In this document: positions 1 through 63,276 of the stretch, piece after piece
How positions within the stretch are numbered: the first letter of the stretch is position 1
How the letters are laid out: each line of letters starts with the position of its first letter
Assembly (NCBI GenBank): GCA_018063165.1
Contig: JAGOQU010000005.1
Coordinates: 1,674 to 65,673, forward strand
From: Minisyncoccota bacterium
GTDB taxonomy: Bacteria; Patescibacteriota; Minisyncoccia; Phycocordibacterales; UBA5272
Direction of reading: 5' to 3'
DNA length: 64,000 bases
Notes under the pieces: model-generated
Seen by the model: the letters and a program-made list of their open reading frames with translations, nothing else
What the model was told of the DNA's origin: nothing
Database searches by the model: none
Program-made: the position numbers and the translations under genes

Positions 1-60
1 GCACGTCGTTGCCAACCAAGGATTTTAAGTCCTTTATGTCTACCATTCCATCACCCGGGC
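1..60 (-). tRNA. tRNA-Leu(TAA), 5' portion only (gene runs off the window start)
   Basis: Reverse complement of 1-60 reads GCCCGGGTGATGGAATGGTAGACATAAAGGACTTAAAATCCTTGG...: acceptor, D-arm, anticodon stem AAGGA/TCCTT, loop CTTAAAA (anticodon TAA), start of a long variable arm. Confidence 0.6.
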
Positions 61-125
61 ATATTTTTTTAATAAACAAAATAACAAAACATATATTGTT
101 TTATTATTTTCAGCTACCATGTAAC

Positions 126-527: not shown

Positions 528-577
528 TATAATAAAAACATCTCTCATGTATTCGTGAGAGATGTTTTTATTATTAG

Positions 578-687
578 TAACAACAGAACACGACACCTGC
601 GTGTCGTGTGTTAGGGATCGAATAGGGTTCGCGAACATGCTTCGAGCAAAGCAAGGCAGGTTTGTGAACGATCCCTACTGGGAGCAC
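578..687 (+). repeat. tRNA-linked structured element, copy 2 (tandem)
   Basis: Hairpin acacgacaCCTGCGtgtcgtgt: same loop, fully compensatory stem change versus copy 1. Same core with 3 substitutions. Ends gatccctactgggagca. Terminator-like hairpin at 699-735. Confidence 0.6.
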
Positions 688-838
688 AGAAGTAAAGTAA
701 AAATCCACTTGGATTACCGAGTGGATTTATACTTTACATGTAAACCATTTTACTTTTGCACTGTTGTACGTGACGCAGAATAGTACGATAAATTTTTATC
801 TATAAACACTAATCACATATTTCTGATATAATTCTTAC

Positions 839-5900: not shown

Positions 5901-6065
5901 TACCCGGGAAAGGACTTGAACTGAGACACTAGCGAAGCCAGTTTTTGAATCAGCAGATTCACGGCTTGGCCGTAAAAACTGTTGTGTCGAAGTCGGGGTC
6001 GCGAAACAATACTTTTACAAATGTATTCATTGTGTAAAAGTATATGTTTGGTGACCAAGTCCTGT
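5901..6065 (+). repeat. divergent tRNA-linked structured element (antisense copy of the tRNA-Leu 3' end plus family core)
   Basis: acccgggaaaggacttgaac is the exact reverse complement of the last 20 nt of tRNA-Leu(TAG). Downstream are ggggtcgcgaaac, a hairpin, then tttggtgaccaagtcct resembling the tRNA T-arm. Confidence 0.45.
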
Positions 6066-16602: not shown

Positions 16603-17019
16603 TTAAAATAAAGACAAAATGAAAATAGATTGATAACAAAATGTTATAAAAAATAAAACGAGGGTTATTTTTGAAAGCGTCGTATATTTTTTTACATCAT
16701 GCACACATGTCCATATAAATCTCAAAAGAAAAACAACACCAGAAAAACATAGTGACAGAAAAACATAAATAAAAAACAACAAAGACTCTTTTACAAAAAA
16801 TCCTTCTTGATAATATATGTATATCGTAAGACAGATAGAAATAAAAAAGATTTTTAAAAAAGAATCGGTATATTTTTTATGATGTCTAATAAAAGATATT
16901 CTCTGTTTTAAAACTTGCTCACCAAAATATAGGGATTTAAATAAATACAAAACTAGTACAACATTTAAGAAACAAACACTTACAAGTAATATAAACATAA
17001 AAATACTCATATAGTTCAC
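16603..17019 (-). CDS. hypothetical small membrane protein
   Basis: Very AT-rich, Phe/Leu/Ile-rich ORF with 3-4 hydrophobic segments. Could be non-coding. Confidence 0.25.
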   Translation of the reverse strand: MNYMSIFMFILLVSVCFLNVVLVLYLFKSLYFGEQVLKQRISFIRHHKKYTDSFLKIFFISICLTIYIYYQEGFFVKESLLFFIYVFLSLCFSGVVFLLRFIWTCVHDVKKYTTLSKITLVLFFITFCYQSIFILSLF

Positions 17020-17100
17020 CTTTTTATATAAAGAACAAGATAAAATACATACTACAACAAAAAAGAAAGAAAGACGAATCTATACAGAATTATAATAATT

Positions 17101-17230
17101 CAATCTTTATACCAATAACACCATATTTATCCTGATCTTCTACAGGATAAAATTTACAAATTTCATTAAGAAGAAACTCCTTTGAGTCTCCACCAAAATA
17201 ATTTGAAGGAAAATCAGAAAATAACTTTTC
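17101..17230 (-). pseudogene. 3' fragment of an ASCH-domain gene (degraded duplicate of the 3' end of 19095-19433)
   Basis: ~130 nt near-identical to 19098-19230 (caatctttataccaataacaccatatttatc...aaggaaaatcagaaaa) with no N-terminal part. Confidence 0.7.
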
Positions 17231-17289
17231 AAAAGAGAATAGGTTACAAAAGCACTAGCTTCGTTCAAGAAGCTTTCGAGACCCCAGTT

Positions 17290-17400
17290 CGTGTCGGTCA
17301 CGTACGAGACGCAGATTTGAGACTCGGTCACAAAACTACCTCGCTTCGCTCGAAGTAGTTTCGCGACCCCTATTCTCGTCTCACGTACATGACGCAGGTC
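17290..17400 (-). repeat. tRNA-linked structured element family member (degenerate 3' end)
   Basis: Minus-strand read: hairpin gtacatgaCCTGCGtcatgtac, then gagacgagaataggggtcgcgaaactacttcgagcgaagcgaggtagttttgtgaccgagtctc. Confidence 0.5.
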
Positions 17401-17706
17401 ATGTACTTCATACCCATCATGTGTGAAATAAAAGACCTCACTAAATCGTGAGGTCTTTTATTTCACACATGTGCACAAGATGGGTGGCTATCCGAACTTT
17501 TAAAGTGTGCTCTCTCAATCAAAACTTCTATAAAATCATTGGAAAATTCTCTAAATTTACCAAATACCAAACATTGACTACCTATTGTGTTAATGTTATT
17601 ATGTAGAAACTTCTCGAATAATCTTGAAGTATCCGCAGCTCTTTGCAAAACCCTTGAGTTACACAACTTGTTTTAACAAGCCAGTACTCATCACAGGAGA
17701 AATACC

Positions 17707-19047
17707 ATGACGAAAGTAAGCACTTTGATTCGCCCCGCAGAAATTAATGATTTCGAATGGGTGGCAGATCTTATGCACACCTCACTTGAACCATACTATG
17801 GTGGAGACCATAGAGCGCACGCGAAACGTATACTTGACGCCCATATTGATGGTGGCCATGATCGCGTTGGCTTCTTTTCATTTGAACAAAAAATGTTCAT
17901 TCTGGAAGTAGAAAACAAGAGCGCAGGAATTCTCCATCTAGTTGGCAAGAGACAGTCAACATATAAAATCAGTCCTCTAATCCTCGCCCAGGAATTCCAG
18001 GGTATAGGAGGGCTTGGTACAATGCTACTTGATTACGCAGAAAACCACGCACGCGAACATCAAGCACGACAACTCTACTGTACGGTAGCAGAAAAAAATA
18101 ATCTTGCGATGCAATTCTTTTTACGAAAGGGATTCATTCGTGCAGGAAGTTCTGATAGTCATTACAAAAATGATATTACGGAGACAATGCTTTACAAACC
18201 TCTACACGGAGAAAGTAAAATCCTGTCTCTTGACAAGATACATGTTTCTGTTTTACCACTTGAAAAAGTTGATTCGAAGGCAAAAGAAGAAGTTGCAAAG
18301 TTGTTGCTCGAAAAACTGCCAAACTCTTTTGAAGGTATAACCGACGAATGGGTGACAGCACTTTTTAATGGGTATGAGCGCCGAAACACTTCTGATATCA
18401 ACCTTAAATACAAATTAATTTTTGTTGCACTTGATAGTGATGGTTGTGTGATTGGTGTAGCAGGAGCAACACCTAAAAAAGGAAGCCCGATTAAAATCAT
18501 GCCTTTTATTGCAACTAATACTGTTGCTTTTGAAGCACTTTTAATTGATATTCCACATCAGTTAGTGCCATATGGCCATAAACTCTACACCCACATCAAC
18601 CCAACTCCAGAAGAAGTGGTTTCTCTTCAAAGGCTTGGGTGGAAACTTGATGCTGCACTACCGAATGCTTATTACTTGGGTGTTACTACCCAGCAATGGA
18701 GCATAAACATAAAGGAAACTCTTATGAGAACACTACGAATTAAACAAAGGTTTTTTAATCTGATTAAGTCAGGAAAGAAAACTCTCGAGGTTCGTGTTGG
18801 GTATGACACTATTAACCACATTCAAAGTGGTGAACAGATCAACCTAGTAACCCATACTAGCCAACTCAGTGTTCGAGTTAGTGCTATTCGTCGGTATAGC
18901 AACTTCAAAGAAATGCTTTTGAGTGAAAAGTTTTCAAGCATAGCTCCTGATGTTTCATCTTCAGAAGAATTGTTAACATTACTCAGAAACATCTATTCAC
19001 CTCACAAAGAACAGCTTGGTGTTGTGGTATTTGAGATCAAAAAATAA
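17707..19047 (+). CDS. GNAT-GNAT-ASCH fusion protein (tandem acetyltransferase-like domains + C-terminal ASCH domain)
   Basis: First GNAT block QEFQGIGGLGTMLLDYAENHAREHQARQLYCTVAEKNNLAMQFFLRKGF, second GNAT-like region, then C-terminal RIKQRFFNLIKSGKKTLEVRVGYD ASCH beta-barrel signature. Visibly higher G+C than flanking genes. Confidence 0.6.
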   Translation: MTKVSTLIRPAEINDFEWVADLMHTSLEPYYGGDHRAHAKRILDAHIDGGHDRVGFFSFEQKMFILEVENKSAGILHLVGKRQSTYKISPLILAQEFQGIGGLGTMLLDYAENHAREHQARQLYCTVAEKNNLAMQFFLRKGFIRAGSSDSHYKNDITETMLYKPLHGESKILSLDKIHVSVLPLEKVDSKAKEEVAKLLLEKLPNSFEGITDEWVTALFNGYERRNTSDINLKYKLIFVALDSDGCVIGVAGATPKKGSPIKIMPFIATNTVAFEALLIDIPHQLVPYGHKLYTHINPTPEEVVSLQRLGWKLDAALPNAYYLGVTTQQWSINIKETLMRTLRIKQRFFNLIKSGKKTLEVRVGYDTINHIQSGEQINLVTHTSQLSVRVSAIRRYSNFKEMLLSEKFSSIAPDVSSSEELLTLLRNIYSPHKEQLGVVVFEIKK

Positions 19048-19094
19048 GCTGTAATCAAAAACCCCTAGACAATATACTTGCCTAGGGGTTATTT

Positions 19095-19433
19095 TTATTC
19101 TAGCTCAATCTTTATACCAATAACACCATATTTATCTTGTTCTTCTTTGGGGTAAAATTTACAAATTTCATCAAGAAGAAACTCCTTTGAGTCTCCACCA
19201 AAATAATCTGAAGGAAAATCAGAAAACATCTTTTCAAATGATGGGTAACGATATAGTGCCGTCACTTTTGTTTTTACCATATTGTCAGGATTTTCATTTT
19301 GAGAGAAAATAACATCGTCGCCAATATTAATTATTGAACGTTTTTCGTCGAAAAGTCGTGACTCAATAATTTTTCTTCCGTTCACAATTTTTTCATAAGG
19401 CTCTTGAGTAAGCTTCATTTGATGTACAGACAT
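19095..19433 (-). CDS. ASCH-domain protein (YqfB-like size)
   Basis: 112 aa. MKLTQEPYEKIVNGRKIIESRLFDEKRSIINIGDDV ASCH signature. Confidence 0.6.
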   Translation of the reverse strand: MSVHQMKLTQEPYEKIVNGRKIIESRLFDEKRSIINIGDDVIFSQNENPDNMVKTKVTALYRYPSFEKMFSDFPSDYFGGDSKEFLLDEICKFYPKEEQDKYGVIGIKIELE

Positions 19434-19498
19434 ATTATATTAGAATTTATTATTATAAATATAAGAATACCATAAATATTTATAATTATTAAGAGCTG

Positions 19499-19601
19499 TG
19501 CTGGAGGAGAGACTTGGTCACAGTTTCTATTCCTCGCAAGCTCGTCATAATAGAAACCGCGACCCCTATTCTCGTCTCCGCAAGCAAAGCAGTTTGCTTG
19601 C
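19499..19601 (-). repeat. tRNA-linked structured element downstream of tRNA-Leu(CAA)
   Basis: Minus-strand read: hairpin gcaagcaaaCTGCtttgcttgc, then ggagacgagaataggggtcgcg, hairpin gtttctatt...aatagaaac, then tgtgaccaagtctctcctccagca mimicking the tRNA-Leu(CAA) 3' end. Confidence 0.55.
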
Positions 19602-19620
19602 TTCCTCATGAAACACAGTG

Positions 19621-19662
19621 ACCACAAAAACACCCAAGTAGCTACTTGGGTGTTTTTGTGGT
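19621..19662. terminator. long hairpin terminator 3' of tRNA-Leu(CAA)
   Basis: accacaaaaacacccaagtagctacttgggtgtttttgtggt perfect inverted repeat. Confidence 0.7.
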
Positions 19663-19666
19663 CATG

Positions 19667-19748
19667 TGCCGGAGGAGAGACTCGAACTCTCACACCTTGC
19701 GATACACGATTTTGAGTCGTGCGCGTCTACCATTCCGCCACTCCGGCA
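19667..19748 (-). tRNA. tRNA-Leu(CAA)
   Basis: Reverse complement GCCGGAGTGGCGGAATGGTAGACGCGCACGACTCAAAATCGTG + variable arm TATCGCAAGGTGTG + AGAGTTCGAGTCTCTCCTCCGGCA. Confidence 0.8.
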
Positions 19749-20026
19749 TATATTTAATTTTTAACCTTCATTACTTATAGAATATCAAATAAGTAATTTA
19801 TCTTTTCTCGGAATGGTAACCATTCTTTGGTCGTACGTCTGCTGACTTCCGACATCTTCGAGACCAAGTCTCTCGACCACTCCGGCATATATTTAATTTT
19901 TAACCTTCATTACTTATAGAATATCAAATAAGTAATTTATCTTTTCTCGGAATGGTAACCATTCTTTGGTCGTACGTCTGCTGACTTCCGACATCTTCGA
20001 GACCAAGTCTCTCGACCACTCCGGCA
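19749..20026. repeat. two perfect 139-bp tandem repeats, each ending in a copy of the first 11 nt of tRNA-Leu(CAA)
   Basis: Unit tatatttaatttttaacc...ggaatggtaaccattc...atcttcgagaccaagtctctcgaccactccggca at 19749-19887 and 19888-20026. A third partial start follows at 20027. Confidence 0.8.
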
Positions 20027-20136
20027 TATATTTAATTTTAATAAACAGTATGATTATACCACGTCATACCGTTTGTGTAATCTGTCTATTTTTTGTAGAA
20101 TACATTCCAGAAATACTTAGAAAAGGAGTTCTTTAT

Positions 20137-48333: not shown

Positions 48334-49638
48334 ATGGCTAAAAAAATACAACAAAAACTAACATGGTCACTCACTACACGCAAAGTAAATGACCTCACAA
48401 AAAACGGATACAATCCGAGAAAGATAAGCGAGAATGAAAAAAGAGATTTAGAAAACTCTGTTAAAGAGTTTGGTACGGTTGTACCTGTAATTCTAAACAT
48501 CGGTAAAAGAAATAACATTATTATTGGTGGTGAGCAAAGAGTTAAAGTCTATGCTGACCTCGGTATAGAAAGTATTGAGTGCATGACTCCTTCTCGGGAA
48601 CTTACTCTTACAGAAGAAAAGGAATTAAATCTAAGGCTCAATAAAAATACTGGATCTTGGGATGAAAACCTCTTGAAAGATTTTGATATAGACATGCTTT
48701 TAGATGTTGGTTTTGGAGATGAGGAATTACAAAGCATGTTTGATGATGTAAACATGATCGAAGATGATTATGATATAGAAAAAGCAGTAAAAGAAACTAT
48801 TACTCCCAAAGTAAAACTTGGCGAGATTTGGGAACTTGGAAAACATAGGCTACTCGTGGGAGATTCAACTGATCTTGCTTCTGTACAAAAACTAATGGAT
48901 GGGAATTTAGCAGATATCATTTACTGTGACCCGCCATATAATATTGGACTCGACTACTCTAAGGGTGTGGGAAATACAGAAAAGTATGGAGGGTCATATT
49001 CTGCAAAAGATGATTCAAAGACCAAAAAAGAATATGAAGCTTTCATAGATACAAGTATGGAAGTAGCCAAGTCTATTGCTAAAAAAGATAGCCACTTTTT
49101 CTATTGGGGAGATTCTTCATTTATTGGAATGCTCCAATCTCTCTACCTAAAACATAAAGTAGATAGTAAAAGGGTTTGCATGTGGATTAAGAATAATCAA
49201 AACCCAACTCATAAAATTGCATTCAACAAAGTCTATGAGCCTTGTGTATATGGCACTCTTGGTAAACCCTATCTTAATTCTTCGATGAATAACACCAATG
49301 AAATACTTAATCAAGAAGTAACTACCGGCAATCAAGTTCATGATGAAATACTCGACATGATAGATATATGGATTGAAAAAAGAGACAGTGCTCAAACTTA
49401 TCAACATCCGACACAGAAGCCAGTTACTCTAAACGAAAAGCCATTCAAGAGATGCAGTGCTCCACTTCATGTTATTTATAGTGGTTTTGGTGGTAGTGGT
49501 TCTGATCTCATTGCCTGCGAGCAACTAAATAGAGTTTGGCGTGGGGTCGAAAAAGATTTGGTATTTGCTACCGTGATTATAGATAGATGGGAAAAGTTTA
49601 CAGGACTTAAAGCAATGAGAATATATGAAAGTAAATAA
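48334..49638 (+). CDS. ParB-like nuclease domain fused to DNA methyltransferase (N6-adenine/N4-cytosine, DPPY type)
   Basis: N-terminal ParBc-like segment (KISENEKRDLENSVKEFGTVVPVILNIG...IIGGEQRV), then IIYCDPPYNIGLDY and C-terminal SGFGGSGSDLIACEQLNR AdoMet motif. Confidence 0.8.
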   Translation: MAKKIQQKLTWSLTTRKVNDLTKNGYNPRKISENEKRDLENSVKEFGTVVPVILNIGKRNNIIIGGEQRVKVYADLGIESIECMTPSRELTLTEEKELNLRLNKNTGSWDENLLKDFDIDMLLDVGFGDEELQSMFDDVNMIEDDYDIEKAVKETITPKVKLGEIWELGKHRLLVGDSTDLASVQKLMDGNLADIIYCDPPYNIGLDYSKGVGNTEKYGGSYSAKDDSKTKKEYEAFIDTSMEVAKSIAKKDSHFFYWGDSSFIGMLQSLYLKHKVDSKRVCMWIKNNQNPTHKIAFNKVYEPCVYGTLGKPYLNSSMNNTNEILNQEVTTGNQVHDEILDMIDIWIEKRDSAQTYQHPTQKPVTLNEKPFKRCSAPLHVIYSGFGGSGSDLIACEQLNRVWRGVEKDLVFATVIIDRWEKFTGLKAMRIYESK

Positions 49639-50377
49639 AGGAGATATATTCACAATTGGTAATCACACTGTGGGGTGTGGCGACTCTACGGATAGAGAGT
49701 TTGTCAGTAAAGTTATTGGGAAAAATAAGATACGAGCAATAGTTACAGACCCTCCATATGGTGTTGCGTATGTAGAAAATAAAAAAGACTTTTTAAAACT
49801 TGGAGTGAAAGATGAAAAGAAAATTGCAGGAGATCATATACAATCGGACTCTGAATATACTGACTTTACTCAAAAGTATTTAGGAGCAGTGGTTCCGTAT
49901 CTAGAGGATTATAATGCTTGCTATATATTCAATGCTGACCTCATGTATCCGTCACTTAGAGTTGGTATGACTAACAGGGGATTCTATTATAGTCAGATGC
50001 TCATTTGGGTTAAAAATCAACCAGTCATGAGTCGTAAAGATTATTTATCTCAATATGAACTCATTGCATATGGATGGTTTGGAAAGCATAAAACAGAAAG
50101 GTCTAAGTCAAAGAACGTCATATACCACCCAAGACCAAATAAATCTAAACTGCATCCAACTCAAAAACCGATAGGTTTACTTCGTAGACTTATCCCAGAC
50201 AATACTGTTATTGGTGACATGGTCTATGATCCATTTCTAGGAAGTGGTTCAACCGCTATTGCTTGTGAACACTTAGGTCGAAAATGTATTGGTATAGAGC
50301 TCGACGTTAAGTATGTAGAAATAATACTACAAAGACTTGAAAAGCTTACTGGCGAAAAAGCCATAAAGAGTAATTAA
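49625..50377 (+). CDS. DNA methyltransferase (orphan, DPPY type)
   Basis: IVTDPPYGVAYV, HPTQKPIGLLRRLI, DPFLGSGSTAIACEHLGRKCIGIELD. Confidence 0.8.
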   Translation: MKVNKGDIFTIGNHTVGCGDSTDREFVSKVIGKNKIRAIVTDPPYGVAYVENKKDFLKLGVKDEKKIAGDHIQSDSEYTDFTQKYLGAVVPYLEDYNACYIFNADLMYPSLRVGMTNRGFYYSQMLIWVKNQPVMSRKDYLSQYELIAYGWFGKHKTERSKSKNVIYHPRPNKSKLHPTQKPIGLLRRLIPDNTVIGDMVYDPFLGSGSTAIACEHLGRKCIGIELDVKYVEIILQRLEKLTGEKAIKSN

Positions 50378-52067: not shown

Positions 52068-52925
52068 ATGATGACTGAAAAGATCACGTCGAATCAACGT
52101 AAACAAATCGTTCGATTCGTGGAGGATGGCATTGATGCCGTGAACCTTCAAAAAGACGGCGCACAGCGCCTTATCGAAAACGGAGGAGAATTCCAAAGCG
52201 AGCTGAAAAAGCTTGTTGAACGTTTCTCCATTACCAACCAGTACGCGGACGAAGAAGTGAAATCCAGCTACGGCTACCTGTCGGGCTACACGCCCAAGGG
52301 TATCACCGAGCAGACCAACTTACTCCGCGCCCTGTTCCCTGGTATCGGCTACGCCAACGAAAAGCTTGCCGAAGCTGGTCTGCCCGAAAACGCCGAAGGA
52401 TGGTTCGCCATTCCGCGGTGGGAAAAGGTTGCCCCGACTTATGGCGAAGCGGTGCAGAAGGTGCTCGATCTGATCAAGCAAACCAGAAACGGTGCGTTCT
52501 ACAACTACCGTGAAGGTCAACTTGGTCCGAACCAGCTCCGTCAGTCCGCGAAAGCAAAGTCAATGTTCCAAATGCTCGGTGGCGAGCAAAAAGATCAGGA
52601 CATTCTGGTGGTACCTGCCCAATTCGGTATCCGTCATCGCGGTCGCTCGGTTCGCCGTGCCCGCGCGCTAATGAACGCAAACGAATGCGGTCTGGGTGCA
52701 TTTGCCATCGGCATCATGCTCCTGACTCATCCTGAGCGTCTTCAGCACTTTGATGATCTCTGGATTGACTCCGCTGGTGACGAGTTTGCTCCGCATGCCG
52801 ATGGTGACTTCTCGAGGTCTCCGTACTTCAGGTTCTTTGACGACGAGGTCGAGTTCGACACCAACGATGTTTTCATTGCTTACGCCTACTATGGTTCGGC
52901 TTCGGTGTGTCTTCCGCAAGGTTGA
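52068..52925 (+). CDS. DGR target protein (variable region at C-terminus)
   Basis: 285-aa ORF, markedly GC-rich versus flanks. Last ~45 codons form the VR matching the downstream TR with adenine-specific mismatches. Confidence 0.7.
   Translation: MMTEKITSNQRKQIVRFVEDGIDAVNLQKDGAQRLIENGGEFQSELKKLVERFSITNQYADEEVKSSYGYLSGYTPKGITEQTNLLRALFPGIGYANEKLAEAGLPENAEGWFAIPRWEKVAPTYGEAVQKVLDLIKQTRNGAFYNYREGQLGPNQLRQSAKAKSMFQMLGGEQKDQDILVVPAQFGIRHRGRSVRRARALMNANECGLGAFAIGIMLLTHPERLQHFDDLWIDSAGDEFAPHADGDFSRSPYFRFFDDEVEFDTNDVFIAYAYYGSASVCLPQG
52784..52921 (+). repeat. DGR variable repeat (VR)
   Basis: Aligned by hand to 53289-53426 at a constant offset of 505 bp. Confidence 0.7.
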
Positions 52926-52984
52926 TACTTGTTCTTTGGGATCTTGAGTCTTTTGATTTTTTGATCCTTGAATCCTTGAGTGGG

Positions 52985-53012
52985 TTTGCGAAAGCAAACC
53001 CACTTTTTTTAT
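52985..53012 (+). terminator. terminator after DGR target gene
   Basis: gtgggtttgc-gaaa-gcaaacccac followed by tttttttatt. Confidence 0.7.
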
Positions 53013-53288
53013 TTGCCGAAGGCAATTTTTGTATTTTTATGGTAAAATAAGTTTGAGTCTAGGTTAGTGTATAGTAGTTTACGGATTACTATCACCGAAC
53101 TCTTTCTCCTATGAGAAATCACAATCAGCATCACAAAGACCAAGGTTTCTGTGACAGTGTTGTTGCTCTAGAGATACTGCTTACTATTTTCTAAGACAAA
53201 CAAGTAATTGTGTTGTTGGATTAAATACAGAATCGTGATTTATGTGCAATATCATACTTCGTGGTTTGTGGTCTGGATGGAAAATAGT

Positions 53289-53426
53289 AAAAGCTCCGAA
53301 TGCCGATGGTGACTTCTCGAAGTCTCCGTACTTCAAGTTCAATGACGACAAGGTCAAGTTCGACACCAACGATGTTGACAATGCTAACGACAACTATGGT
53401 TCGGCTTCGGTGTGTCTTCCGAAGTA
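53289..53426 (+). repeat. DGR template repeat (TR)
   Basis: Non-coding copy of the VR. 13 of 14 mismatches are A in this copy versus C/G/T in the VR. Followed by hairpin ggtatcc-atatcg-gatacc at 53440-53468. Confidence 0.7.
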
Positions 53427-53472
53427 TCAATTAAGCACAAAAGGTATCCATATCGGATACCTTTTGCTTTAT

Positions 53473-53817
53473 TTACTTTTGGAACTTTATCCACCCACCA
53501 AGCATACGACCAATTTCATCAATGATTCCTTGGAGAAGTGTGTACTTCTTTAGATCGAGACTTCTACTTTCTTTCATAAGACGAATAAAAAACCTTATGA
53601 TATTAAGTTTTACACTCGTCTTTTCTAGAAGAATTATTTTTCTTTCTTTTGAAACATAACTTGCTTCAAGAACTAATTCAAGGATATCTATAATTATATT
53701 TTCTGTACGCTCGTAAACAGAGAATCTGTCTTGTTTTGGAACCAGATTTCTGTACTCATGAAATGTTTTGTACAACTCATGAATCTTACGAAGTATTGGC
53801 ACATCATTATCATTCAT
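53473..53817 (-). CDS. avd: Avd-like accessory variability determinant (four-helix-bundle family)
   Basis: 114-aa helical ORF ending IDEIGRMLGGWIKFQK. Lies between TR and RT. Opposite strand to the RT is atypical. Confidence 0.5.
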   Translation of the reverse strand: MNDNDVPILRKIHELYKTFHEYRNLVPKQDRFSVYERTENIIIDILELVLEASYVSKERKIILLEKTSVKLNIIRFFIRLMKESRSLDLKKYTLLQGIIDEIGRMLGGWIKFQK

Positions 53818-54873
53818 ATGAGAATATATACTAATTTATTTAATAAACTTGTTACTCCAGAAAACCTATTTTCTGCATGGGAGGATTTTCGACGTGATAA
53901 AAAAAAGAAAGTAGATGTACTTATTTTTGAGAAAAATCTCGAGCAAGAAATATTCTCTATTCACAGAGAATTGACTTCTGACACTTACAAGCACAGTGGC
54001 TATACTTCTTTTTATCTTTCAGATCCGAAACGTCGACATATACACAAAGCCTTAGTTCGTGACCGAGTACTTCATCATGCGATTATGGGTATTTTGTATC
54101 CTTTGTACGACAAAACCTTTATTCATAATTCTTTTTCTTGTCGTGTTGGGAAAGGAACTCATAAAGGTGTTGATGCACTACGATCCATGCTTTACAAAGC
54201 AAGTAAAAATAATACAAGAAATGTGTATATTTTAAAGTGCGATATAGAGAAGTTTTTTGATTCTATTTCTCACGAGATCTTGCTTGACGCTCTTCACTCA
54301 CGAATCAAAGATCAAAAACTTATGGACTTACTCACTGAAGTAATCGGAAGCTTTTCGAGTTATAAGTCTAATCTTTTCGGATTGTGCGGTGTACCTATTG
54401 GTAATTTAACCTCTCAATTATTCGCTAATGTTTACATGGATATTTTTGATCAGTTCATGAAACATGAACTTAAAGTAAAATATTATGCACGGTATACCGA
54501 TGATTTTGTAATAGTTAGTGAGAATAAAGAATATCTAATAGACTTATTACCCAAAATACAATTGTTTTTAAATGAGAAGTTAAAGTTACAGACACATCCC
54601 AAGAAAATTATCCTAACAAAGTTCGCACTAGGCATTGATTATCTTGGATATGTTTTGTTCCCACACTTCACTTTAGTTCGTAAACTCACTCAAAAATGTG
54701 CTTTTAGAAAAATAAACGAAAAGATATCTTTGTGCAAGCAACAAGAGATTTCAAAAGATAAAGTACATGCAACCTTAATGTCTTATCTTGGTGTTTTATC
54801 TCATGCAGATACTTATAAAGTATCTAATAAATTAAAGAATGATTATTTCTTTAATATGAGTAACATTGACTAA
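53818..54873 (+). CDS. DGR reverse transcriptase
   Basis: Start inferred at MRIYTNLFNKLVTPENLFSAWEDF. RT motifs include GVPIGNLTSQLFANVYM (DGR-type [I/L]GxxxSQ) and YARYTDDFVIV (YxDD). No maturase/endonuclease domain. Confidence 0.8.
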   Translation: MRIYTNLFNKLVTPENLFSAWEDFRRDKKKKVDVLIFEKNLEQEIFSIHRELTSDTYKHSGYTSFYLSDPKRRHIHKALVRDRVLHHAIMGILYPLYDKTFIHNSFSCRVGKGTHKGVDALRSMLYKASKNNTRNVYILKCDIEKFFDSISHEILLDALHSRIKDQKLMDLLTEVIGSFSSYKSNLFGLCGVPIGNLTSQLFANVYMDIFDQFMKHELKVKYYARYTDDFVIVSENKEYLIDLLPKIQLFLNEKLKLQTHPKKIILTKFALGIDYLGYVLFPHFTLVRKLTQKCAFRKINEKISLCKQQEISKDKVHATLMSYLGVLSHADTYKVSNKLKNDYFFNMSNID

Positions 54874-54893: not shown

Positions 54894-57239
54894 TTAGTCA
54901 TTCATGTTTTCAAGACTTTTCCCAAGCGATTCTAATTTCTCTATATCTTTTATTAGATGCCACTCACCAGTTTTAAATATAACAACTCCACCAAATAGTT
55001 TCTGTGCTTTTCGTGTTTTATTTTCTTTCTTTACATATTCTTGCAAGGCTTCATTTTTTGCTTTTGTATACGTATCTTTATCTCTGTCGTTCTCATCTTT
55101 TGTTTCAAAAATACCAATTCTTCCATCAGAAAGCTCAACAATATAGTCAGGATAGAAAGTGTGTACTTCTGATTGATATTCGTATCTGATACCAAAATAG
55201 TCCCTCCTCATTTCACCATTTTTATACCACCAATTTACAGCAATAAGTAATTCAAGATACTTTTCAAACTCTTGCTCTGGTTTAGATCTAGTTTTTGAAA
55301 GATAGCAAGGTTGTAAAACACATTTTGCATAGTTTTTTTCTTCGTCTACTTCTTTATTAAAGTAGTCTTTTTCTATTATTTCAAAACCTGTAATAACATG
55401 TTCGGTCTCTTCTTTTGCTTTCTTTGCACGAACCAAGGAGTATGTCTGTACTGCATCTAAAAAGATAGGTTTAATTTTATCTTTATTTAAAATGAGAAAT
55501 GCTTGAGAGCTAAGTGTTCCATTATTTATTATCTCATCACCAAAGAGTTCACGGCATACTAAAAACCAAGCAGTATTCATAGACGGTACCGAACGAGCGA
55601 TGTTAGTAAATGGAGCCATCATACTTTTAAAGAGACTGCGTGAAATAAATTCAATCTGGCGCTCATTTATTTTAAGAGACTGCACATCGCCGTCATCGTC
55701 TTCGAAAACATTTTTATAATTGTCTACCTCTGTAACATCAAGAGACAGATCCTTTATAACTGTATGTAGTATCTCTTCAGTACCAAATTGCCATCCTAAA
55801 TCAGATGTAGTTGTAGGTTTTACTTTTTTGAGTTTACTTATATTATTTTTATACTCACCCTGAACAAGACCAAGTTTAGTAGATATGGTTTCTAACAAAA
55901 CTTTCCGAAAGTCAGCTTTAATATCTTGGTAATCGGCACGTTCTCTATAAAAAGATGTTAAGTTTATCGGGTTATACGACGGCAGTCTCTTTGCAGGCTG
56001 ATCACCCAGTATCTTTGGGCTGTAACTTTCAATGTCAAAACTCGCACTACTTGTATTGGTGTATACATAAGCTTTATTAAGAGCTTCTACTTCATAGTGT
56101 TTTTGCTCAGGCATACGAAGTATTCTTCCTAATACTTGTATATTAAATACTTCACTTTCACTTTCTCTAAATTTAAGTAGTATCTGTGCACGAGGGCAAT
56201 CCCAGCCAGTATCAATTGCTTGTTTAAAAAGTAAGTATTCTTGTGGGGCGGTATTGTCGGATATTTTATCCAAATTCCTATCTATTTTATTTTCATCGTC
56301 TAACCATACTGACAACTTGTCATCACCCAAAGAGACACCTCTAGTATTTTTAAGTTGTTCTAAAACAACAGACTTTACCACTTCACCATTTGCGCTGTTG
56401 GGTAGCTGTATAAGAAGTAAAGGATTTACATCTATATTATTTTCTTTATACAGCCTAGCGAGTTCATCTCTTTTATTGATTGCAGTACGAAGTATCGCTT
56501 CGTCACTATCGTCTGTATCTTTAAAATCAAAATCAAAGTTAACGAGAATTTGATCTTTTATCATTTGTTCGTCAATAACATCTTGAGGTTTAATTTTTTC
56601 TATCCAACCATTACCTGCAATTACATCTTCTGCTGACAAAATCAATTTCGGAGTTGCTGATACCTCTATCGTGACAGTCGGATTTATGAGATGAATTATA
56701 TCTTCGGCAATCTTTGTCTTTGTATTGCTGTGAGCTTCGTCAATAATGAGAATTATTTTTCTATGAATACTGGTGGTGTTTAAAAGTATTTCCCTAAAGT
56801 TAGTTTGTTCACCATCTTTCATAATAATGTTTTTCCACTCCTGTGTCTTACCATCTTTCGAACGTATCTTTTCCCAGTTTACAACCATAACTGAGTCTTT
56901 TAAAAGTTCATATTGTGAAGTACCAAAAACACCATCTACACTTTGAACTATAGGGAATCCATCAAATACTCTTTCAAGACTTCTCCTGCTTTGATTGTGT
57001 AGATCTCCTTTACCGATAGAGAGCCATACAAAAGTAAAATCAAGAGAGCTTTCACTTTCTTTATTTTTGTTTATCAGTGACTCTATAAAACTTGCCACCA
57101 TAATAGTCTTACCTGATCCAGTAGGAGCTTGGAGAACAGCGGTCTTTTTGTGGTCATTATTACTGTCTAAAAAGAGTGACACTTTTTCAGTAAGCGTATC
57201 GACAGCTTTTTGTTGATAGTCTTTTAAAATTATTTTCAT
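54894..57239 (-). CDS. res: type III restriction enzyme Res subunit
   Basis: SF2 helicase motifs VLQAPTGSGKTIM (I) and LIIDEAHS (II). Follows a Mod gene. Start inferred at MKIILKDYQQ. Confidence 0.8.
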   Translation of the reverse strand: MKIILKDYQQKAVDTLTEKVSLFLDSNNDHKKTAVLQAPTGSGKTIMVASFIESLINKNKESESSLDFTFVWLSIGKGDLHNQSRRSLERVFDGFPIVQSVDGVFGTSQYELLKDSVMVVNWEKIRSKDGKTQEWKNIIMKDGEQTNFREILLNTTSIHRKIILIIDEAHSNTKTKIAEDIIHLINPTVTIEVSATPKLILSAEDVIAGNGWIEKIKPQDVIDEQMIKDQILVNFDFDFKDTDDSDEAILRTAINKRDELARLYKENNIDVNPLLLIQLPNSANGEVVKSVVLEQLKNTRGVSLGDDKLSVWLDDENKIDRNLDKISDNTAPQEYLLFKQAIDTGWDCPRAQILLKFRESESEVFNIQVLGRILRMPEQKHYEVEALNKAYVYTNTSSASFDIESYSPKILGDQPAKRLPSYNPINLTSFYRERADYQDIKADFRKVLLETISTKLGLVQGEYKNNISKLKKVKPTTTSDLGWQFGTEEILHTVIKDLSLDVTEVDNYKNVFEDDDGDVQSLKINERQIEFISRSLFKSMMAPFTNIARSVPSMNTAWFLVCRELFGDEIINNGTLSSQAFLILNKDKIKPIFLDAVQTYSLVRAKKAKEETEHVITGFEIIEKDYFNKEVDEEKNYAKCVLQPCYLSKTRSKPEQEFEKYLELLIAVNWWYKNGEMRRDYFGIRYEYQSEVHTFYPDYIVELSDGRIGIFETKDENDRDKDTYTKAKNEALQEYVKKENKTRKAQKLFGGVVIFKTGEWHLIKDIEKLESLGKSLENMND

Positions 57240-57249
57240 AGTGTTTTTG

Positions 57250-58986
57250 TTATCTGCGATTATTTCGCTTATAAATAGTTTCGTATATTTCAAGTATTTT
57301 TTCTGGTACTTCTTCGATATGTATTCCTTTCCATTTACGATAGTCATCTATAAAATCAGAGACACTTCGAAGAGAGAAAATATAGGCAGTCTTGTGTGAA
57401 TCTTCATATTGTTTTAACTCACTTCGCATATCTTCGAGATAACTATCATCAAGATCATAATACACACCCATATAATGTTTTACGGTAGTACTGTCGCCCT
57501 CTTGAGATATAACCTTTATTCCGCTATAAATACGATACATGAGAGTGTCGCCATCTTTTACTTCTTTTTCTAGATTAAAAGTATTCTCCTTAAGACAAAG
57601 CATTTCACTACAGGCTCGCATGAGTCTCATTTTCATATTGTCACTATGGCGAGTCTTGTCTATGTATTCGCATTTTAAATACTCCAAATTACCACCAAAA
57701 CCCTCGATGTTTTCTCCTTTTTTGTTTGTGTAGCCTTTAATCACTCTCTTGAGTCTTTCATAGGTTACTTCTTCACAAATATTATTCTCATTATTAGTAC
57801 AGAGAATATATTGGCGATTACCGCCATCCTCTTTATTTAATTCCATAACAGCATGGCCAGTTGTACCAGAGCCTGCCATGAAGTCTAAGACTACGGAGTT
57901 TTTATCTTGATGAAAATCTACTAAGTCTTTAATTAACAAGTATGGCTTTGAGTAATTAAAAACTTTTGATTTAAAAATATTTTCGAGTTGCTTGGTAGCC
58001 ATTGTACTGGAATAACTTGATATGACAGCTATTGGAGTTTTTGAACGTTCTATCAAATTTCCCTCATTATCACAGTTAAAATATTGCTTGGTATATACAT
58101 TACCATTCTTAAAAACTATAAAATCATTTTCTAATCCCCATAAAAATTTATTTTCAGACCACCTCCAACACCCCTTCTTCCCATCTTCTGAAGGCATTTT
58201 AGTTTCTCCATTTGGCAGAATGATTGGATAGTCAAGGCTTTTAGAATACTGAATACTAAAACTATTCAACTTAATCAACTTGTATCTTCCTCGTATTTCT
58301 AAATAGTTGTCTTCAAAAGTATAACCATTATCATTTTCTATTTTTAAATTTTTTATAACAACTAAATCTTTTTTCAAACCATAAACCAAAATGTATTCAT
58401 GTTTAATCTTGAAATGTGCACTATCAGATCCGCCACCTCCTTCTTTATTTTCCCATATTAAATTTGCTATAAAATTATGTTCCCCGAGTATTGAGTCACA
58501 CAAAAGTTTTAATTGTGCCTGCTCATTATCATCAATAGATATAAAAATTGCACCACTATCTTTTAGTAGGTCTTTTGCAAGTCTTAGTCTCTTCTCTATA
58601 AAAGACAACCACTTAGAATGTCTAAAGCTATCCTCTCTATCTACATAATCATCATTATATATAAAGTCTTTATTCCCAGTATTGTATGGCGGATCAATAT
58701 AGATGACATCAATCTTACCCTTATGGGTATAATTCAAAACAGAAAGAGCGTGATAATTGTCTCCCTCAATCAATAAGTTCGTTGGGCGAGTATTATCTGT
58801 AACGATTTTTCTATTTTTAATTTCTTTAAGCACTGGAATTTGCTTTTCACATTGAAGTACCACATCCTCTGGTTTATCTTCCCAGACGAGTCCATATTTT
58901 TTACGAGACTTGAGTTTTTTCATTTCTTCCTCAAGTTCTTTGATGCGAGCAAAAAGCTCTTGTTGTGAGTTTGTGTTTGATGACAT
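57250..58986 (-). CDS. mod: type III R-M Mod subunit (N6-adenine DNA methyltransferase)
   Basis: LIEGDNYHALSVL, IDVIYIDPPYNTG, C-terminal FMAGSGTTGHAV. Confidence 0.85.
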   Translation of the reverse strand: MSSNTNSQQELFARIKELEEEMKKLKSRKKYGLVWEDKPEDVVLQCEKQIPVLKEIKNRKIVTDNTRPTNLLIEGDNYHALSVLNYTHKGKIDVIYIDPPYNTGNKDFIYNDDYVDREDSFRHSKWLSFIEKRLRLAKDLLKDSGAIFISIDDNEQAQLKLLCDSILGEHNFIANLIWENKEGGGGSDSAHFKIKHEYILVYGLKKDLVVIKNLKIENDNGYTFEDNYLEIRGRYKLIKLNSFSIQYSKSLDYPIILPNGETKMPSEDGKKGCWRWSENKFLWGLENDFIVFKNGNVYTKQYFNCDNEGNLIERSKTPIAVISSYSSTMATKQLENIFKSKVFNYSKPYLLIKDLVDFHQDKNSVVLDFMAGSGTTGHAVMELNKEDGGNRQYILCTNNENNICEEVTYERLKRVIKGYTNKKGENIEGFGGNLEYLKCEYIDKTRHSDNMKMRLMRACSEMLCLKENTFNLEKEVKDGDTLMYRIYSGIKVISQEGDSTTVKHYMGVYYDLDDSYLEDMRSELKQYEDSHKTAYIFSLRSVSDFIDDYRKWKGIHIEEVPEKILEIYETIYKRNNRR

Positions 58987-60612: not shown

Positions 60613-61418
60613 TCAAAAACTTTAGACAACATAGCGCTAAAATCAGGGTTTGTTTTTGGATTTGGTATAGCAACTATCCCATAACCAATAGAACTACCAT
60701 CTTTTTTACTTCTTCTAACTTTATTTCTTAGATATTGTGAGTAAATGTCTGTGGAGGTTTTATATTCTCTTAGTGTCCCACTTATTGCACCGATAATAAA
60801 ATCTGCAATCTGGATACCAATATTTAAATTTGAAAATTCAATAAAGAGGTTATCAACAATGAGATTGTAATCTTTTATAAAGGAATCACTGTTAATTATT
60901 TCTTTGTAAACTTCTTTTTTAATTTTATCATCCTTAGATGAATTTTCGTTTTCATGGACAAGAATTGTTACAAAATGATTTTCCTGCCCAGCGAACTGAC
61001 ACCTCTGCATAAGATTTTGGAGTTGCATTTTTACAAAAGAATCTTGTCTTTTAATTACTTTTATTAAATCGCTTTTTCTTGAGACATTAGTAACTATTTT
61101 TATATCAAAATCAGAAATAATTTTAAAAAATGAATCTAGATACTCATGCAATTCTTTAATGCTAAATTTATCAAGGTAAAGAATGTCCTCATTAAGAGCT
61201 TTATTTTTATTTTTTAAAAAAATTGCAGATGAAATATGAGACCACTTTATTTCTTTTGTTTCTTTAAGAAAATCAAGATTAAGTTTCTTTATTTTCTTAT
61301 TTAGTTTTAAATAGTCATGAATATCAATCATGTAACCTCCTCTCAGTAACCACTCGTGATCATTGTTAAGTGTTCCTTGTTCATCTATAAAGAAAAATTT
61401 GGTTGTGTTATTTATCAT
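60609..61418 (-). CDS. DUF3800-like protein
   Basis: N-terminal FFIDEQGTL (DUF3800 starts with a similar I/YxDESG). 269 aa. Confidence 0.45.
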   Translation of the reverse strand: MINNTTKFFFIDEQGTLNNDHEWLLRGGYMIDIHDYLKLNKKIKKLNLDFLKETKEIKWSHISSAIFLKNKNKALNEDILYLDKFSIKELHEYLDSFFKIISDFDIKIVTNVSRKSDLIKVIKRQDSFVKMQLQNLMQRCQFAGQENHFVTILVHENENSSKDDKIKKEVYKEIINSDSFIKDYNLIVDNLFIEFSNLNIGIQIADFIIGAISGTLREYKTSTDIYSQYLRNKVRRSKKDGSSIGYGIVAIPNPKTNPDFSAMLSKVFD

Positions 61419-61542
61419 AAAGACATTTTACTCTTTCTAAAACAAAACACACGAAGCGTCGTGTGTTTTGCGATAACTTATGTACTCGGATCGCTACCAT
61501 CTCGTGAGAATATGGGAACACTCCGATACTAAGTTGTCAAGG

Positions 61543-61630
61543 CGGAGACGATGAGATTCGAACTCATGAGGGTATTACTACCCTGCCTCGTTAGCAGTGA
61601 GGTGCCTTCGACCAGCTCAGCCACGTCTCC
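61543..61630 (-). tRNA. tRNA-Ser(GCT)
   Basis: Reverse complement GGAGACGTGGCTGAGCTGGTCGAAGGCACCTCACTGCTAACGAGG + long variable arm CAGGGTAGTAATACCCTCATG + AGTTCGAATCTCATCGTCTCC. Confidence 0.75.
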
Positions 61631-63258: not shown

Positions 63259-63276
63259 GACTGTAATCAAAAGAAG

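Follow-up and report, generated by a model that had tools for sequence, protein, structure and literature searches.

In one clade of the ultra-small Patescibacteria (CPR), the 3′ ends of most tRNA genes in the sampled loci carry a modular hairpin structure of ~125 bases, in which forward and reverse-complement copies of the tRNA's own 3′ end are arranged around a conserved hairpin. The element matches no catalogued family (Rfam, viral, phage and plasmid collections) and marks sites at which extra genes have accumulated. As the best explanation we tentatively propose, at somewhat less than even probability, a recombination or insertion site that folds from a single strand and mimics the end of a tRNA gene. 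The window denotes the whole 64-kb stretch of DNA that was analyzed.

Architecture and covariation of the element

On the tRNA-sense strand, the element begins with a guide (the antisense of tRNA gene positions 54–74, usually split at 65/66 by hairpin 1 with its CTGC loop), followed by an AATAG bulge, a conserved stem (GGTCGCG/TGTGACC) bearing the variable hairpin 2, and a sense copy of tRNA positions 56–74 (the tail). When the single strand folds, the guide pairs with the sense copy, giving a duplex replica of the tRNA gene end beside a conserved bulged hairpin; the predicted fold, in DNA or RNA, includes a conserved 5-nt bulge and two G·T pairs. Bases conserved across the family are GAATAGGGGTCGCG...TGTGACC, and the 13-nt core, bulge and tetraloop are kept in 30 tRNA types and ~45 genomes. 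The antisense 5′ half takes in 1–2 gene-flank bases and not CCA, and forms perfect pairs where the tRNA has G·U. The acceptor-side guide is poorly complementary in ~45% of copies; a hypothesized anticorrelation between a complete tail and a mismatched guide was not significant (Spearman −0.11, p = 0.37).

The covariation that the sequence-only reading had proposed to look for is present: compensatory changes were found at 22 of 27 pairs, with all pairs of hairpin 1 (9/9) covarying across the family, and pairing amounts to 95.7%, compared with 75% in shuffles and ~40% with the partners slid. Fold z-scores range from −5 to −7. Also borne out across the family was the claim that the loop of the first hairpin is conserved while its stem differs, the stem being freely variable. 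Pairs of G·T and A·C are similarly frequent in hairpin 1 (21 vs 18), without an excess of the former, and number 20 vs 11 where the conserved stem varies. In this the stems resemble palindromes in DNA; the two conserved G·T pairs and the bulge are nevertheless strand-specific. Terminators, strong and bidirectional, stand between tRNA and element, and no promoter consensus was found upstream of the element.

Inspection of the sequences gave no fit of hairpin 1 to an anticodon arm (its loop has 4 nt and is not an anticodon loop) or of the bulge to a kink-turn.

Copies in the window and the tRNA-Leu(CAA) locus

The covariance model R1 matched six places in the window at E ≤ 0.0013, and a motif count gave 7 matches vs 0.41 expected by chance (Table 1). 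Six copies had been proposed to form one family from the letters of the DNA; five of them are indeed united by this one model (E ≤ 0.0013), whereas the copy at 5901–6065 matches only partially (E = 0.08). This "type 2" copy is made up of an unbroken 20-nt antisense to the tRNA end, then TGAGA, an additional hairpin, TCGAAGTCGGGGTCGCG, hairpin 2 and GGTGACC, and last a short tail, an architecture also present in L031. The two copies after tRNA-Lys(CTT) are each trailed by their own terminator, and their tails match the tRNA at 18/18 and 17/18 bases.

Table 1. Features of the element family and its surroundings in the window.
Feature	Position	Strand	Evidence or remarks
Two tandem copies after tRNA-Lys(CTT)	409–529 and 569–689	+	Model R1, 111.2 and 104.2 bits
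Variant (type 2) copy after tRNA-Leu(TAG)	5901–6065	+	Sequence; partial model match 5995–6058
Duplicated ASCH gene 3′ fragment, abutting E′	17100–17236	−	126/137 bases identical to 3′ part of 19095–19433
Degenerate third copy (E′)	17237–17295	−	Model R1, 18.9 bits, E = 0.0013; sequence
Copy E2	17313–17425	−	Model R1, 94.8 bits; fold z = −5.4
E2 conserved stem and hairpin 2	17326–17368	−	
E2 hairpin 1	17385–17406	−	
Long hairpin directly upstream of E2, at the terminator's place in other units	17422–17467	−	Sequence
GNAT acetyltransferase–ASCH fusion gene, cargo between E1 and E2	17707–19047	+	Pfam Acetyltransf_1 and ASCH
ASCH-domain gene, cargo between E1 and E2	19095–19433	−	Pfam ASCH, E = 3.5e-9
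Copy E1, complete three-way-junction element	19496–19620	−	Model R1, 92.8 bits, E = 3e-24
E1 tail, sense copy of tRNA positions 57–74 (AAGTCTCTCCTCCAGCAC)	19498–19515	−	Comparison with tRNA 3′ end
E1 conserved stem GGTCGCG/TGTGACC, two conserved G·T pairs, variable hairpin 2 as cap	19516–19564	−	Alignment, covariation, fold
E1 anti-T segment (GGAGACGAG) and conserved AATAG bulge	19566–19579	−	Sequence; alignment columns invariant
E1 hairpin 1, 9-bp stem, CTGC loop	19580–19601	−	Fold
E1 5′ strand, partial antisense of acceptor 3′ strand (GTG...GAGGA), middle mismatched	19603–19618	−	Comparison with tRNA 3′ end
Terminator hairpin between tRNA-Leu(CAA) and E1, 20-bp palindromic, A-tract and T-tract within stem	19619–19664	−	Terminator scan; sequence
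tRNA-Leu(CAA) gene, array anchor	19666–19747	−	ARAGORN; Rfam tRNA, 60.3 bits
Two identical 139-nt units of the 5′-side family, upstream of tRNA-Leu(CAA)	19762–20039	−	
Divergent copy after tRNA-Glu(CTC)	63257–63380	+	Model R1, 35.4 bits, E = 3e-8

The two copies that the sequence-only reading had placed downstream of tRNA-Leu(CAA), at 19601–19499 and 17400–17290, are real: they fall inside model matches and start at hairpin 1, and all sequence details quoted for them were confirmed. The locus contains the hairpins GCAAGCAAA-CTGC-TTTGCTTGC and GTACATGAC-CTGC-GTCATGTAC, as well as the conserved GAGACGAGAATAGGGGTCGCG. E1 folds with a minimum free energy of −52.7 kcal/mol (z = −5.0), and its tail differs from the last 18 bases of tRNA-Leu(CAA) at two positions, the first base and an A for G in ...CCAGCA. 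The tail of E2 (17319–17325) is cut after its T-stem part, and this truncated tail meets E′ near the would-be hairpin 1 loop of E′; the long hairpin region upstream of E2 gave only spurious hairpin matches in Rfam.

The inserted block between E1 and E2 had been described as GC-enriched and as possibly having displaced the second copy. The ASCH and GNAT-ASCH genes do lie there, but the enrichment was overstated, GC being 0.38 compared with about 0.33, which is mild. Displacement is supported by synteny, since the interval from tRNA-Leu(CAA) to parB measures about 0.2–0.7 kb in relatives and about 4.2 kb in the window, and E2 shares an identical hairpin 1 and anti-T module with the copy nearest the tRNA in L085. 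The degenerate copy (17237–17295), the duplicated ASCH 3′ end (17100–17236), the two 139-nt repeats upstream of the tRNA and the antisense nature of the 5′ half had not been noted in the sequence-only reading, which put forward no function.

Distribution across genomes and linkage to tRNA genes

Across ~45 Patescibacteria genomes, the covariance model found 175 copies in 93 loci. Within these loci, which were selected for carrying the element, a copy immediately follows 126 of 181 tRNA genes (30 anticodons), an occupancy of ~70%. The association with tRNA genes seen in the window extends beyond this genome: 137 of the 158 evaluable copies directly follow a tRNA gene or another copy, always on the strand of the tRNA. 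The tail and the neighboring tRNA's 3′ end are the same in dozens of copies over 30 anticodons, often at 18/18 bases. Orthologous tRNA loci in different genomes often hold related copies, as expected if a resident functional element were passed down vertically, and a metagenome scan aimed at free or plasmid forms again gave copies in a chromosomal context linked to tRNA genes.

The main rival to the recombination-site reading is a non-coding RNA derived from the tRNA transcription unit through terminator read-through or processing, which we consider unlikely. In such an RNA, the 5′ half might pair with the 3′ half of the neighboring pre-tRNA while the element's own tail competes, making a switch or decoy, and a protein might sit on the conserved bulge and G·U stem; this arrangement appears no likelier than the RNA itself. 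The same low expectation attaches to roles of the switch or decoy in tRNA maturation, in quality control of read-through transcripts or in expression of the downstream gene. The constant placement on the tRNA's strand and the conservation at orthologous loci in ~45 genomes would suit an RNA, but strong bidirectional terminators intervene, without a conserved promoter. Similarly, the very strong covariation, conserved tetraloop, 5-nt bulge and two conserved G·U pairs are as expected, whereas the lack of a G·U excess over A·C in the variable stems (hairpin 1) is unusual in a selected RNA helix. The antisense fits the precursor or gene (flank bases rather than CCA), as pairing in cis predicts, and where tails are truncated, the antisense to the tRNA acceptor strand is often still perfect; however, a role as shape or decoy leaves module-swapped arrays, chimeric copies and island-flanking repeats unaccounted for. 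At all four element-bearing tRNA loci of the window (4/4) the next downstream gene is on the same strand, yet the downstream genes are unrelated accessory genes.

Arrays, flanked islands and module reshuffling

Tandem copies bear non-homologous terminators and hairpin 1 sequences, and truncated tails join close to the hairpin 1 loop of the next copy; in L078 a chimeric copy is interrupted within its core by an insertion. A single hairpin 1 sequence is shared by 13 genomes, where it is combined with 11 tRNA types and 14 hairpin 2 sequences. Islands of accessory genes are flanked by copies as direct repeats of 170–190 bp: a 3.2 kb cargo in L101 lies between 190-bp repeats (98.9% identical), and ~6 kb with HerA and Schlafen-type genes in JBAYGN01 between 168-bp repeats (98.8% identical). 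Distal copies bound islands in L014, L051, L101 and JBAYGN01. The cargo genes examined encode ASCH, GNAT, methyltransferase, IucA/IucC, HerA, Schlafen, M23 and S51 proteins.

Another prospect, which we judge improbable, is that of passive by-products without function: leftovers of tRNA gene duplication or of conventional integrase insertion (displaced 3′ ends), turned into hairpins by template-switch "palindrome correction" at terminator hairpins. Integration into tRNA genes classically leaves direct repeats of the tRNA 3′ end as its scar, and the island-distal copies are preceded by displaced and decayed "pseudo 3′ ends"; the tails, however, remain perfect while these neighboring pseudo-ends decay. 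Strictly Watson–Crick stems fit the maintenance of palindromes at the DNA level, but the stems are upheld by compensatory changes, and neutral scars would not keep a 13-nt core, bulge and tetraloop over 30 tRNA types and ~45 genomes. By-products of integration would also accord with a large serine recombinase island at the window's tRNA-Ser (with homologs in L011, L111 and L049; neither this island nor the retroelement reverse transcriptase among the window ORFs is linked to the elements) and with a truncated Phage_CRI Rep in the L051 interval, a filamentous-phage remnant and the sole phage gene found; against them, the element follows most tRNA genes of the sampled loci.

A mirror-image family at the 5′ side of tRNA genes

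A family with the same sense/antisense logic, in mirror image, occurs at the 5′ side of tRNA genes. Each of the 139-nt units in the window includes a promoter and the first 10 nt of tRNA-Leu(CAA), conserved TCGAG...CGAAGATGTC hairpins and a D-loop-like sense/antisense hairpin, and hairpin modules are common to the 3′-side and 5′-side families.

Repetitive extragenic palindromes (REP) of enterobacteria are grouped into mosaic elements (BIMEs). A chromosomal structural element of comparable kind behind highly transcribed tRNA genes, serving as a site for a nucleoid or topology protein or as a transcription insulator and occasionally spread by a domesticated transposase, is in our estimation very improbable. 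Mosaic modular hairpins shared between the two families, DNA-like stems and a position beside terminators at the 3′ ends of transcription units would all be in keeping with it, but a topology or insulator role needs no sense and antisense copies of the neighboring tRNA end, and REP/BIME elements are not confined to tRNA genes as the element is; furthermore, reading the sequences revealed no GTAG-hairpin signature of REP type, and the loci showed no gene for a REP-associated transposase.

Searches for known families and enzymes

At the gathering threshold of Rfam 15, only six tRNAs pass in the window; permissive scans of 17000–20000 and 373–720 returned sub-threshold unrelated families only, mostly of spurious hairpin/miRNA type, and no tRNA call by ARAGORN or Rfam RF00005 overlaps any copy. 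Three hits to viral contigs were all chance matches, and BLAST of phage and plasmid records gave no match. A full-text literature search found no description of such elements, nor did the passages reached by term search in a paper on gene exchange in Patescibacteria.

In a survey of neighboring genes (591 ORFs clustered, 78 cluster representatives compared with Pfam), the recurrent neighbors were syntenic housekeeping genes, and no recombinase, transposase or HUH gene recurred near the copies. No tyrosine recombinase was present among the recurrent neighbors or annotated window ORFs, and integron integrase and XerCD/dif were likewise not found; no Y1 HUH transposase (TnpA or a related gene) was seen in the 93 loci of 8 kb or in the 64-kb window. 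The bounded DNA holds no integrase gene in the cargo examined, and only L111 has a serine recombinase in its interval.

Further origins were rejected. In place of a copy of the tRNA 5′ strand, as in a tRNA pseudogene, the 5′ strand is a perfect complement of the 3′ strand. Insertion at the T-loop with a simple 5-bp CGAAT target duplication would give a repeat, whereas the left flank at tRNA-Lys is the reverse complement of the right. Copying of mature tRNA by reverse transcriptase does not agree with an antisense that spans gene-flank bases instead of CCA, plus the whole T-loop.

A proposed folded recombination or insertion site

Under the recombination-site reading, we infer that the fold would act in DNA and that the unit would be mobile. 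The mobile unit would comprise the tRNA end, the terminator, optional cargo, the guide and the hairpins, and its fold would be read by a putative enzyme encoded elsewhere in the genome, possibly an HUH enzyme or a tyrosine recombinase that reads hairpins. (HUH enzymes are a family of nucleases and transposases that cut single-stranded DNA, named for a His-hydrophobic-His motif.) The unit may enter a tRNA gene through the T-loop or the 3′ end, or use the identical tail of a copy already in place; insertion would renew the tRNA 3′ end and terminator and move the old 3′ end downstream as the tail, and repeated insertions would produce arrays. The 170–190 bp units might then double as portable homology for islands of accessory genes.

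Support for this recombination-site reading comes from the match to the target (a tail equal to the tRNA 3′ end and a 5′ half that forms its Watson–Crick antisense) and from the single-strand fold, with its pairing, compensatory pairs and z-scores. It is also supported by the palindrome-like stems, the intervening terminators and absent promoter consensus, and by the arrays and their junctions, flanked islands, module reshuffling and 5′-side mirror family. Against it stand the lack of a recurrent recombinase, transposase or HUH neighbor and of a free, plasmid or viral form in the searches above, the pattern of vertical inheritance, and the ~45% of guides that are poorly complementary; the occupancy of ~70%, coming from loci selected for a copy, is also counted against it. 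The reading gives no account of how a guide matched to a new tRNA would be acquired. The two conserved G·U pairs, conserved loop and bulge would be just as characteristic of an RNA bound by protein, and the flanked islands could come from homologous recombination between repeats alone, with no need of a dedicated site-specific reaction.

A bolder proposal, which we think quite unlikely, is that the 3′ elements and the 5′ mirror family are footprints of an undescribed guide-directed insertion system, in which the ~20-nt antisense would pick a tRNA gene end by pairing and a putative hairpin-reading enzyme would insert the unit and rebuild the gene end. Such a system would provide natural long-guide, programmable targeting by a protein and a DNA fold (or RNA), and a platform for gene-cassette capture in Patescibacteria.

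If the element is a recombination site, it would represent a new way of choosing an integration target, by a 20-nt antisense "address" and a duplex replica of the target and not by a protein-read sequence, and would explain how defence and accessory genes are gained beside tRNA genes in gene-poor, integrase-poor Patescibacteria. Should it be an RNA, a new and widespread class would be at hand whose members pair with the 3′ half of the adjacent tRNA and follow most tRNA genes of a clade. Either way, the family offers a marker, at sequence level, of insertion hotspots in these genomes, a covariance model for use in annotation, and a concrete, testable question concerning an enzyme or RNA-binding partner.

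Comparison with known systems

Integron attC sites and the attP of CTX (cholera-toxin phage) fold from one specific DNA strand. As proposed for the element, their paired arms rebuild a target-like duplex, conserved bulged bases set the strand, and new units stack beside the target; as in the element, the central hairpin is variable and the cargo consists of promoterless or accessory genes. Unlike attC, the element has no GTTRRRY/RYYYAAC core (no GTTRRRY was seen by eye on the alignment against the consensus RYYYAAC...GTTRRRY), its target-like duplex of 19–21 bp is specific to a tRNA gene whereas attC sites share a 7-bp core, and many of its units have no gene; unlike CTX-type attP, it lacks a single-stranded-phage gene set, apart from the one Rep remnant in L051.

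Displaced repeats of tRNA 3′ ends are known at integrase-borne genomic islands, and 178-bp repeats, each with the tRNA-Tyr 3′ end, lie downstream of E. coli tyrT. These share with the element a tRNA 3′ end as a downstream direct repeat, in tandem and with accessory genes between; as in integrase scars, a tRNA 3′-end direct repeat bounds the inserted DNA, the tails matching at up to 18/18 bases. They differ in lacking a conserved structured core common to different tRNA genes, an antisense copy and covarying hairpins. Enterobacterial BIMEs and pneumococcal BOX are mosaic intergenic repeats, which resemble the element in their freely combining hairpin modules, their position at the 3′ ends of transcription units and their many copies per genome, but have no tie to tRNA genes and no sequence copied from a neighboring gene.

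IS200/IS605 single-strand transposons recognize their cleavage and target sites by pairing with an internal guide beside a hairpin, which can be reprogrammed (PMC5934647; PMC5027513), and their non-autonomous copies depend on a single transposase encoded at another genomic site (PMC6006769; PMC8266576). IS200/IS605, their hairpin-only derivatives (PATEs) and the REP elements mobilized by REP-associated tyrosine transposases are strand-specific and carry two hairpins. The element has two hairpins that covary on the tRNA-sense strand and may likewise be read on one strand; its internal antisense of ~20 nt, which might serve as such a guide, has a match in the tRNA end upstream and another in its own tail. 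In contrast to IS200/IS605, the guide has ~20 nt and not 4, the element's hairpins differ from one another, a variable terminator forms the left end of the unit, and the target, a tRNA gene end, is duplicated, whereas IS200/IS605 make no duplication.

Architecture of the tRNA-associated elements

On the strand of the tRNA gene that it follows, a copy of the element consists of a 5' antisense strand, hairpin 1, an antisense of the T-arm (anti-T), the motif AATAG, a conserved stem with hairpin 2, and a sense copy of the gene end (tail). The 5' strand is antisense to the tRNA acceptor 3' strand and the following 1-2 gene bases; A(G) precedes hairpin 1 (9-bp stem, CTGC loop), which is followed by CG(T) and a segment antisense to the T-loop and to the 3' strand of the T-stem. 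AATAG is unpaired, 5' of the conserved stem (GGTCGCG/TGTGACC, with the pairs G.T, C-G, and G.T) that continues into the variable hairpin 2, and the tail copies tRNA positions 56-74. As the 5' strand and anti-T together cover positions 54-74, the antisense spans this stretch, and its pairing with the tail produces a three-way junction, for which predicted free energies lie between -50 and -59 kcal/mol and z-scores between -5 and -7. The antisense fits the gene including its flank bases, with no CCA end matched; it is perfect on the acceptor side in about a third of copies and has mid-segment mismatches in about 45%. That the antisense copies the 5' strand of the tRNA was ruled out, because it has a Watson-Crick base where the tRNA's own acceptor stem has G.U. 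A variant (type 2), present at window 5901-6065 and in locus L031, has an unbroken antisense of about 20 nt and then an extra hairpin.

Family size and tRNA linkage

A core-pattern scan of one genome per species yielded 115 loci, of which 93 belong to Patescibacteria (about 45 genomes, including that of the window); the other loci are chance matches in GC-rich genomes. With 88 copies as its basis, a covariance model matched six window copies at E <= 0.0013 and the type-2 copy partially (E = 0.08), and found 175 copies in 676 kb of Patescibacteria loci. Downstream sequence was long enough to evaluate 181 tRNA genes, and 126 of them (30 anticodons) are followed within 250 nt, on the same strand, by a copy; this occupancy of 70% is too high because the loci were selected for carrying a copy. 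Most evaluable copies (137/158) are directly 3' of a tRNA gene or of another copy, and many tails are identical to the adjacent tRNA at 18/18 bases. The same linkage was seen in a metagenome scan, which added tRNA-Tyr and tRNA-Ile. Rfam contains no matching family, viral contigs, phage records, and plasmid records gave no match, and the text returned by a full-text literature search and a term search of one relevant paper held no description of such elements.

The exact identity between tail and neighbouring gene is most readily accounted for if the two share an origin, by recombination or duplication at the end of that gene; if only shape mattered, helices of any sequence would serve. A structural DNA repeat is a reading that we consider improbable and place below a non-coding RNA.

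Selection on the fold

Among 150 aligned copies, 95.7% of cells were paired versus 75.1% in shuffles (0/500 as high), and pairing fell to 37-46% when partners were slid. Compensatory changes occurred in 22/27 pairs of this alignment, which was fitted to the model and so favours structure, and in 20/27 pairs of an independent MAFFT/RNAalifold run, bearing out the stem covariation proposed in the sequence-only reading. Conservation of core, bulge, and loop, together with the maintained pairing, shows that the fold itself is selected. Passive scars are unlikely, and less likely than a non-coding RNA.

In selected RNA helices, G.U is normally far better tolerated than A.C. The variable stems showed no excess of G.T over A.C (hairpin 1, 21 vs 18; stretch extending the conserved stem, 20 vs 11), and the only strand-specific G.T pairs are the two conserved ones; this balance therefore points weakly to a DNA-level hairpin. 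A strong rival reading, somewhat less probable than the DNA site favoured below, is a non-coding RNA pairing with the pre-tRNA of its own locus.

The tRNA-Leu(CAA) locus and its surroundings

The window is bacterial chromosomal DNA of low GC content (about 33%) and has genes for topoisomerase I, RelA/SpoT, ParB, DprA, DNA ligase, and type IV pili, and its nearest relatives among the fetched loci are metagenome-assembled Patescibacteria genomes. Three copies follow tRNA-Leu(CAA), namely E1, E2, and the degenerate E', and all sequence details reported by the sequence-only reading were found there. A long hairpin separates the GNAT-ASCH gene from E2. In a related locus (L085), it is the tRNA-proximal copy that has E2's module of hairpin 1 and anti-T; thus, E1 and the ASCH/GNAT block separate an older copy from the tRNA, in agreement with the earlier proposal that the second copy was displaced by an inserted block. 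The ASCH 3' fragment adjoining E' is the trace of an earlier, since disrupted, arrangement of element and ASCH gene.

Features of the window
Feature	Position	Strand	Remarks
ASCH 3' end duplicate (137 nt)	17100-17236	minus	92% identical to 19095-19433; adjoins E'
E', degenerate third copy	17237-17295	minus	
E2, second element	17313-17425	minus	
GNAT-ASCH gene	17707-19047	plus	between E1 and E2; opposite strand to ASCH gene
ASCH gene	19095-19433	minus	between E1 and E2
E1, 125-nt element	19496-19620	minus	next after terminator
Palindromic terminator (20 bp)	19619-19664	minus	3' of tRNA-Leu(CAA)
tRNA-Leu(CAA)	19666-19747	minus	
Two identical 139-nt tandem mirror units	19762-20039	minus	upstream of tRNA-Leu(CAA)
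Variable repeat of retroelement	52788-52916		3' end of GC-rich ORF 52068-52925
Template repeat of retroelement	53293-53421		
Reverse transcriptase ORF of retroelement	53731-54873		
Large serine recombinase	59284-60612	plus	island 59284-61630, directly 3' of tRNA-Ser(GCT)
DUF3800 gene	60609-61418	minus	same island
Mirror unit	about 61640-61755	minus	upstream of tRNA-Ser(GCT)

The tRNA-Ser(GCT) island looks like a conventional integrated island; a 3'-side element and a second tRNA 3' end copy are absent from it, and homologues of its recombinase occur in three other loci (L011, L111, and L049). A diversity-generating retroelement (52068-54873) has 12/13 template-to-variable differences at template adenines. 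Flanking it are a gene for a ResIII/SNF2-type helicase and two for N6/N4 DNA methylases, one of which carries a fused ParB-like N-terminal domain (48334-50377, 54894-57347); this is probably a restriction-modification or defence cluster. The window start truncates a tRNA gene at 1-62 (minus), located 3' of tRNA-Cys and in the same orientation; this gene resembles tRNA-Leu (gcccgggtgatggaatggtagac...), and its 3' side, a possible site for an element, is beyond the window edge.

Arrays, module exchange, and islands

The modules of copies reassort. Tandem copies, such as those after the window tRNA-Lys, have core and hairpin 2 in common and differ in terminator and hairpin 1; a single hairpin 1 sequence recurs across 13 genomes, at 11 tRNA types and combined with 14 hairpin 2 sequences, and 5 genomes share an identical 33-nt hairpin 2 at 5 different tRNA types. 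At some junctions (E2 to E' in the window; loci L007, L031, L014, and L016) the tail is cut past its T-stem part and fused near the hairpin 1 loop of the next copy. Locus L078 holds a chimeric copy, with an insertion of roughly 100 nt within the core and halves that match different tRNA-Leu alleles.

Among relatives, the tRNA-Leu(CAA)-parB interval varies in length between about 0.2 and about 4.2 kb, with unrelated cargo. Direct repeats composed of acceptor end, terminator, element, and tail bracket accessory islands: one of 3.2 kb in locus L101 (190-bp repeats, 98.9% identical; IucA/IucC and hydrolase genes) and one of about 6 kb in genome JBAYGN01 (loci L088 and L039; JBAYGN010000001.1, 37.8-44.2 kb; 168-bp repeats, 98.8% identical; HerA, Schlafen-AlbA2, and M23 peptidase genes). 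In both, the distal repeat is preceded by a 'pseudo' tRNA 3' end that has diverged, and neither contains an integrase. Other cargo includes a methyltransferase, S51 peptidase, IucA/IucC, and a filamentous-phage Rep remnant. The last, the sole such case found, is a truncated replication protein with a Phage_CRI N-terminal domain (E = 1.5e-7; L051 751-1419, minus); it has tRNA-Leu(CAA) on one side and, on the other, a distal element whose tail is perfect.

Mirror units on the 5' side

A mirror family lies about 100-140 nt 5' of some real tRNA genes, each unit comprising a copy of the tRNA promoter and first 10-14 nt, the conserved TCGAGAAGCTTGGCTTCGAAGATGTC, and a hairpin; in those of tRNA-Leu(CAA), this is followed by an additional D-loop-like sense/antisense hairpin. 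The family also occurs in L021, L031, L041, L085, L099, L102, L109, L115, L125, and other loci. Part of it is homologous to the type-2 extra hairpin, and in L032 its conserved motif lies between two 3'-side copies; thus, both families use one pool of hairpin modules. Their common logic is a displaced gene end and its antisense around a conserved hairpin.

Possible function

Based on the selected fold, the arrays, chimeras, and bracketed islands, the terminators that precede the element, and the DNA-like stems, we tentatively favour a putative single-strand-folded recombination or insertion site, which forms a replica of the tRNA gene end and would be read by a putative enzyme encoded elsewhere in the genome. 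We hold this reading only tentatively because no free form of the element was found; among neighbour genes of the sampled loci, no recombinase recurs beside the copies. Conceptually, the putative site may be likened to integron attC sites and to the folded attP of CTX phage, as well as to the guide-to-target pairing of IS200/IS605 (PMC5934647, PMC5027513, PMC6006769).
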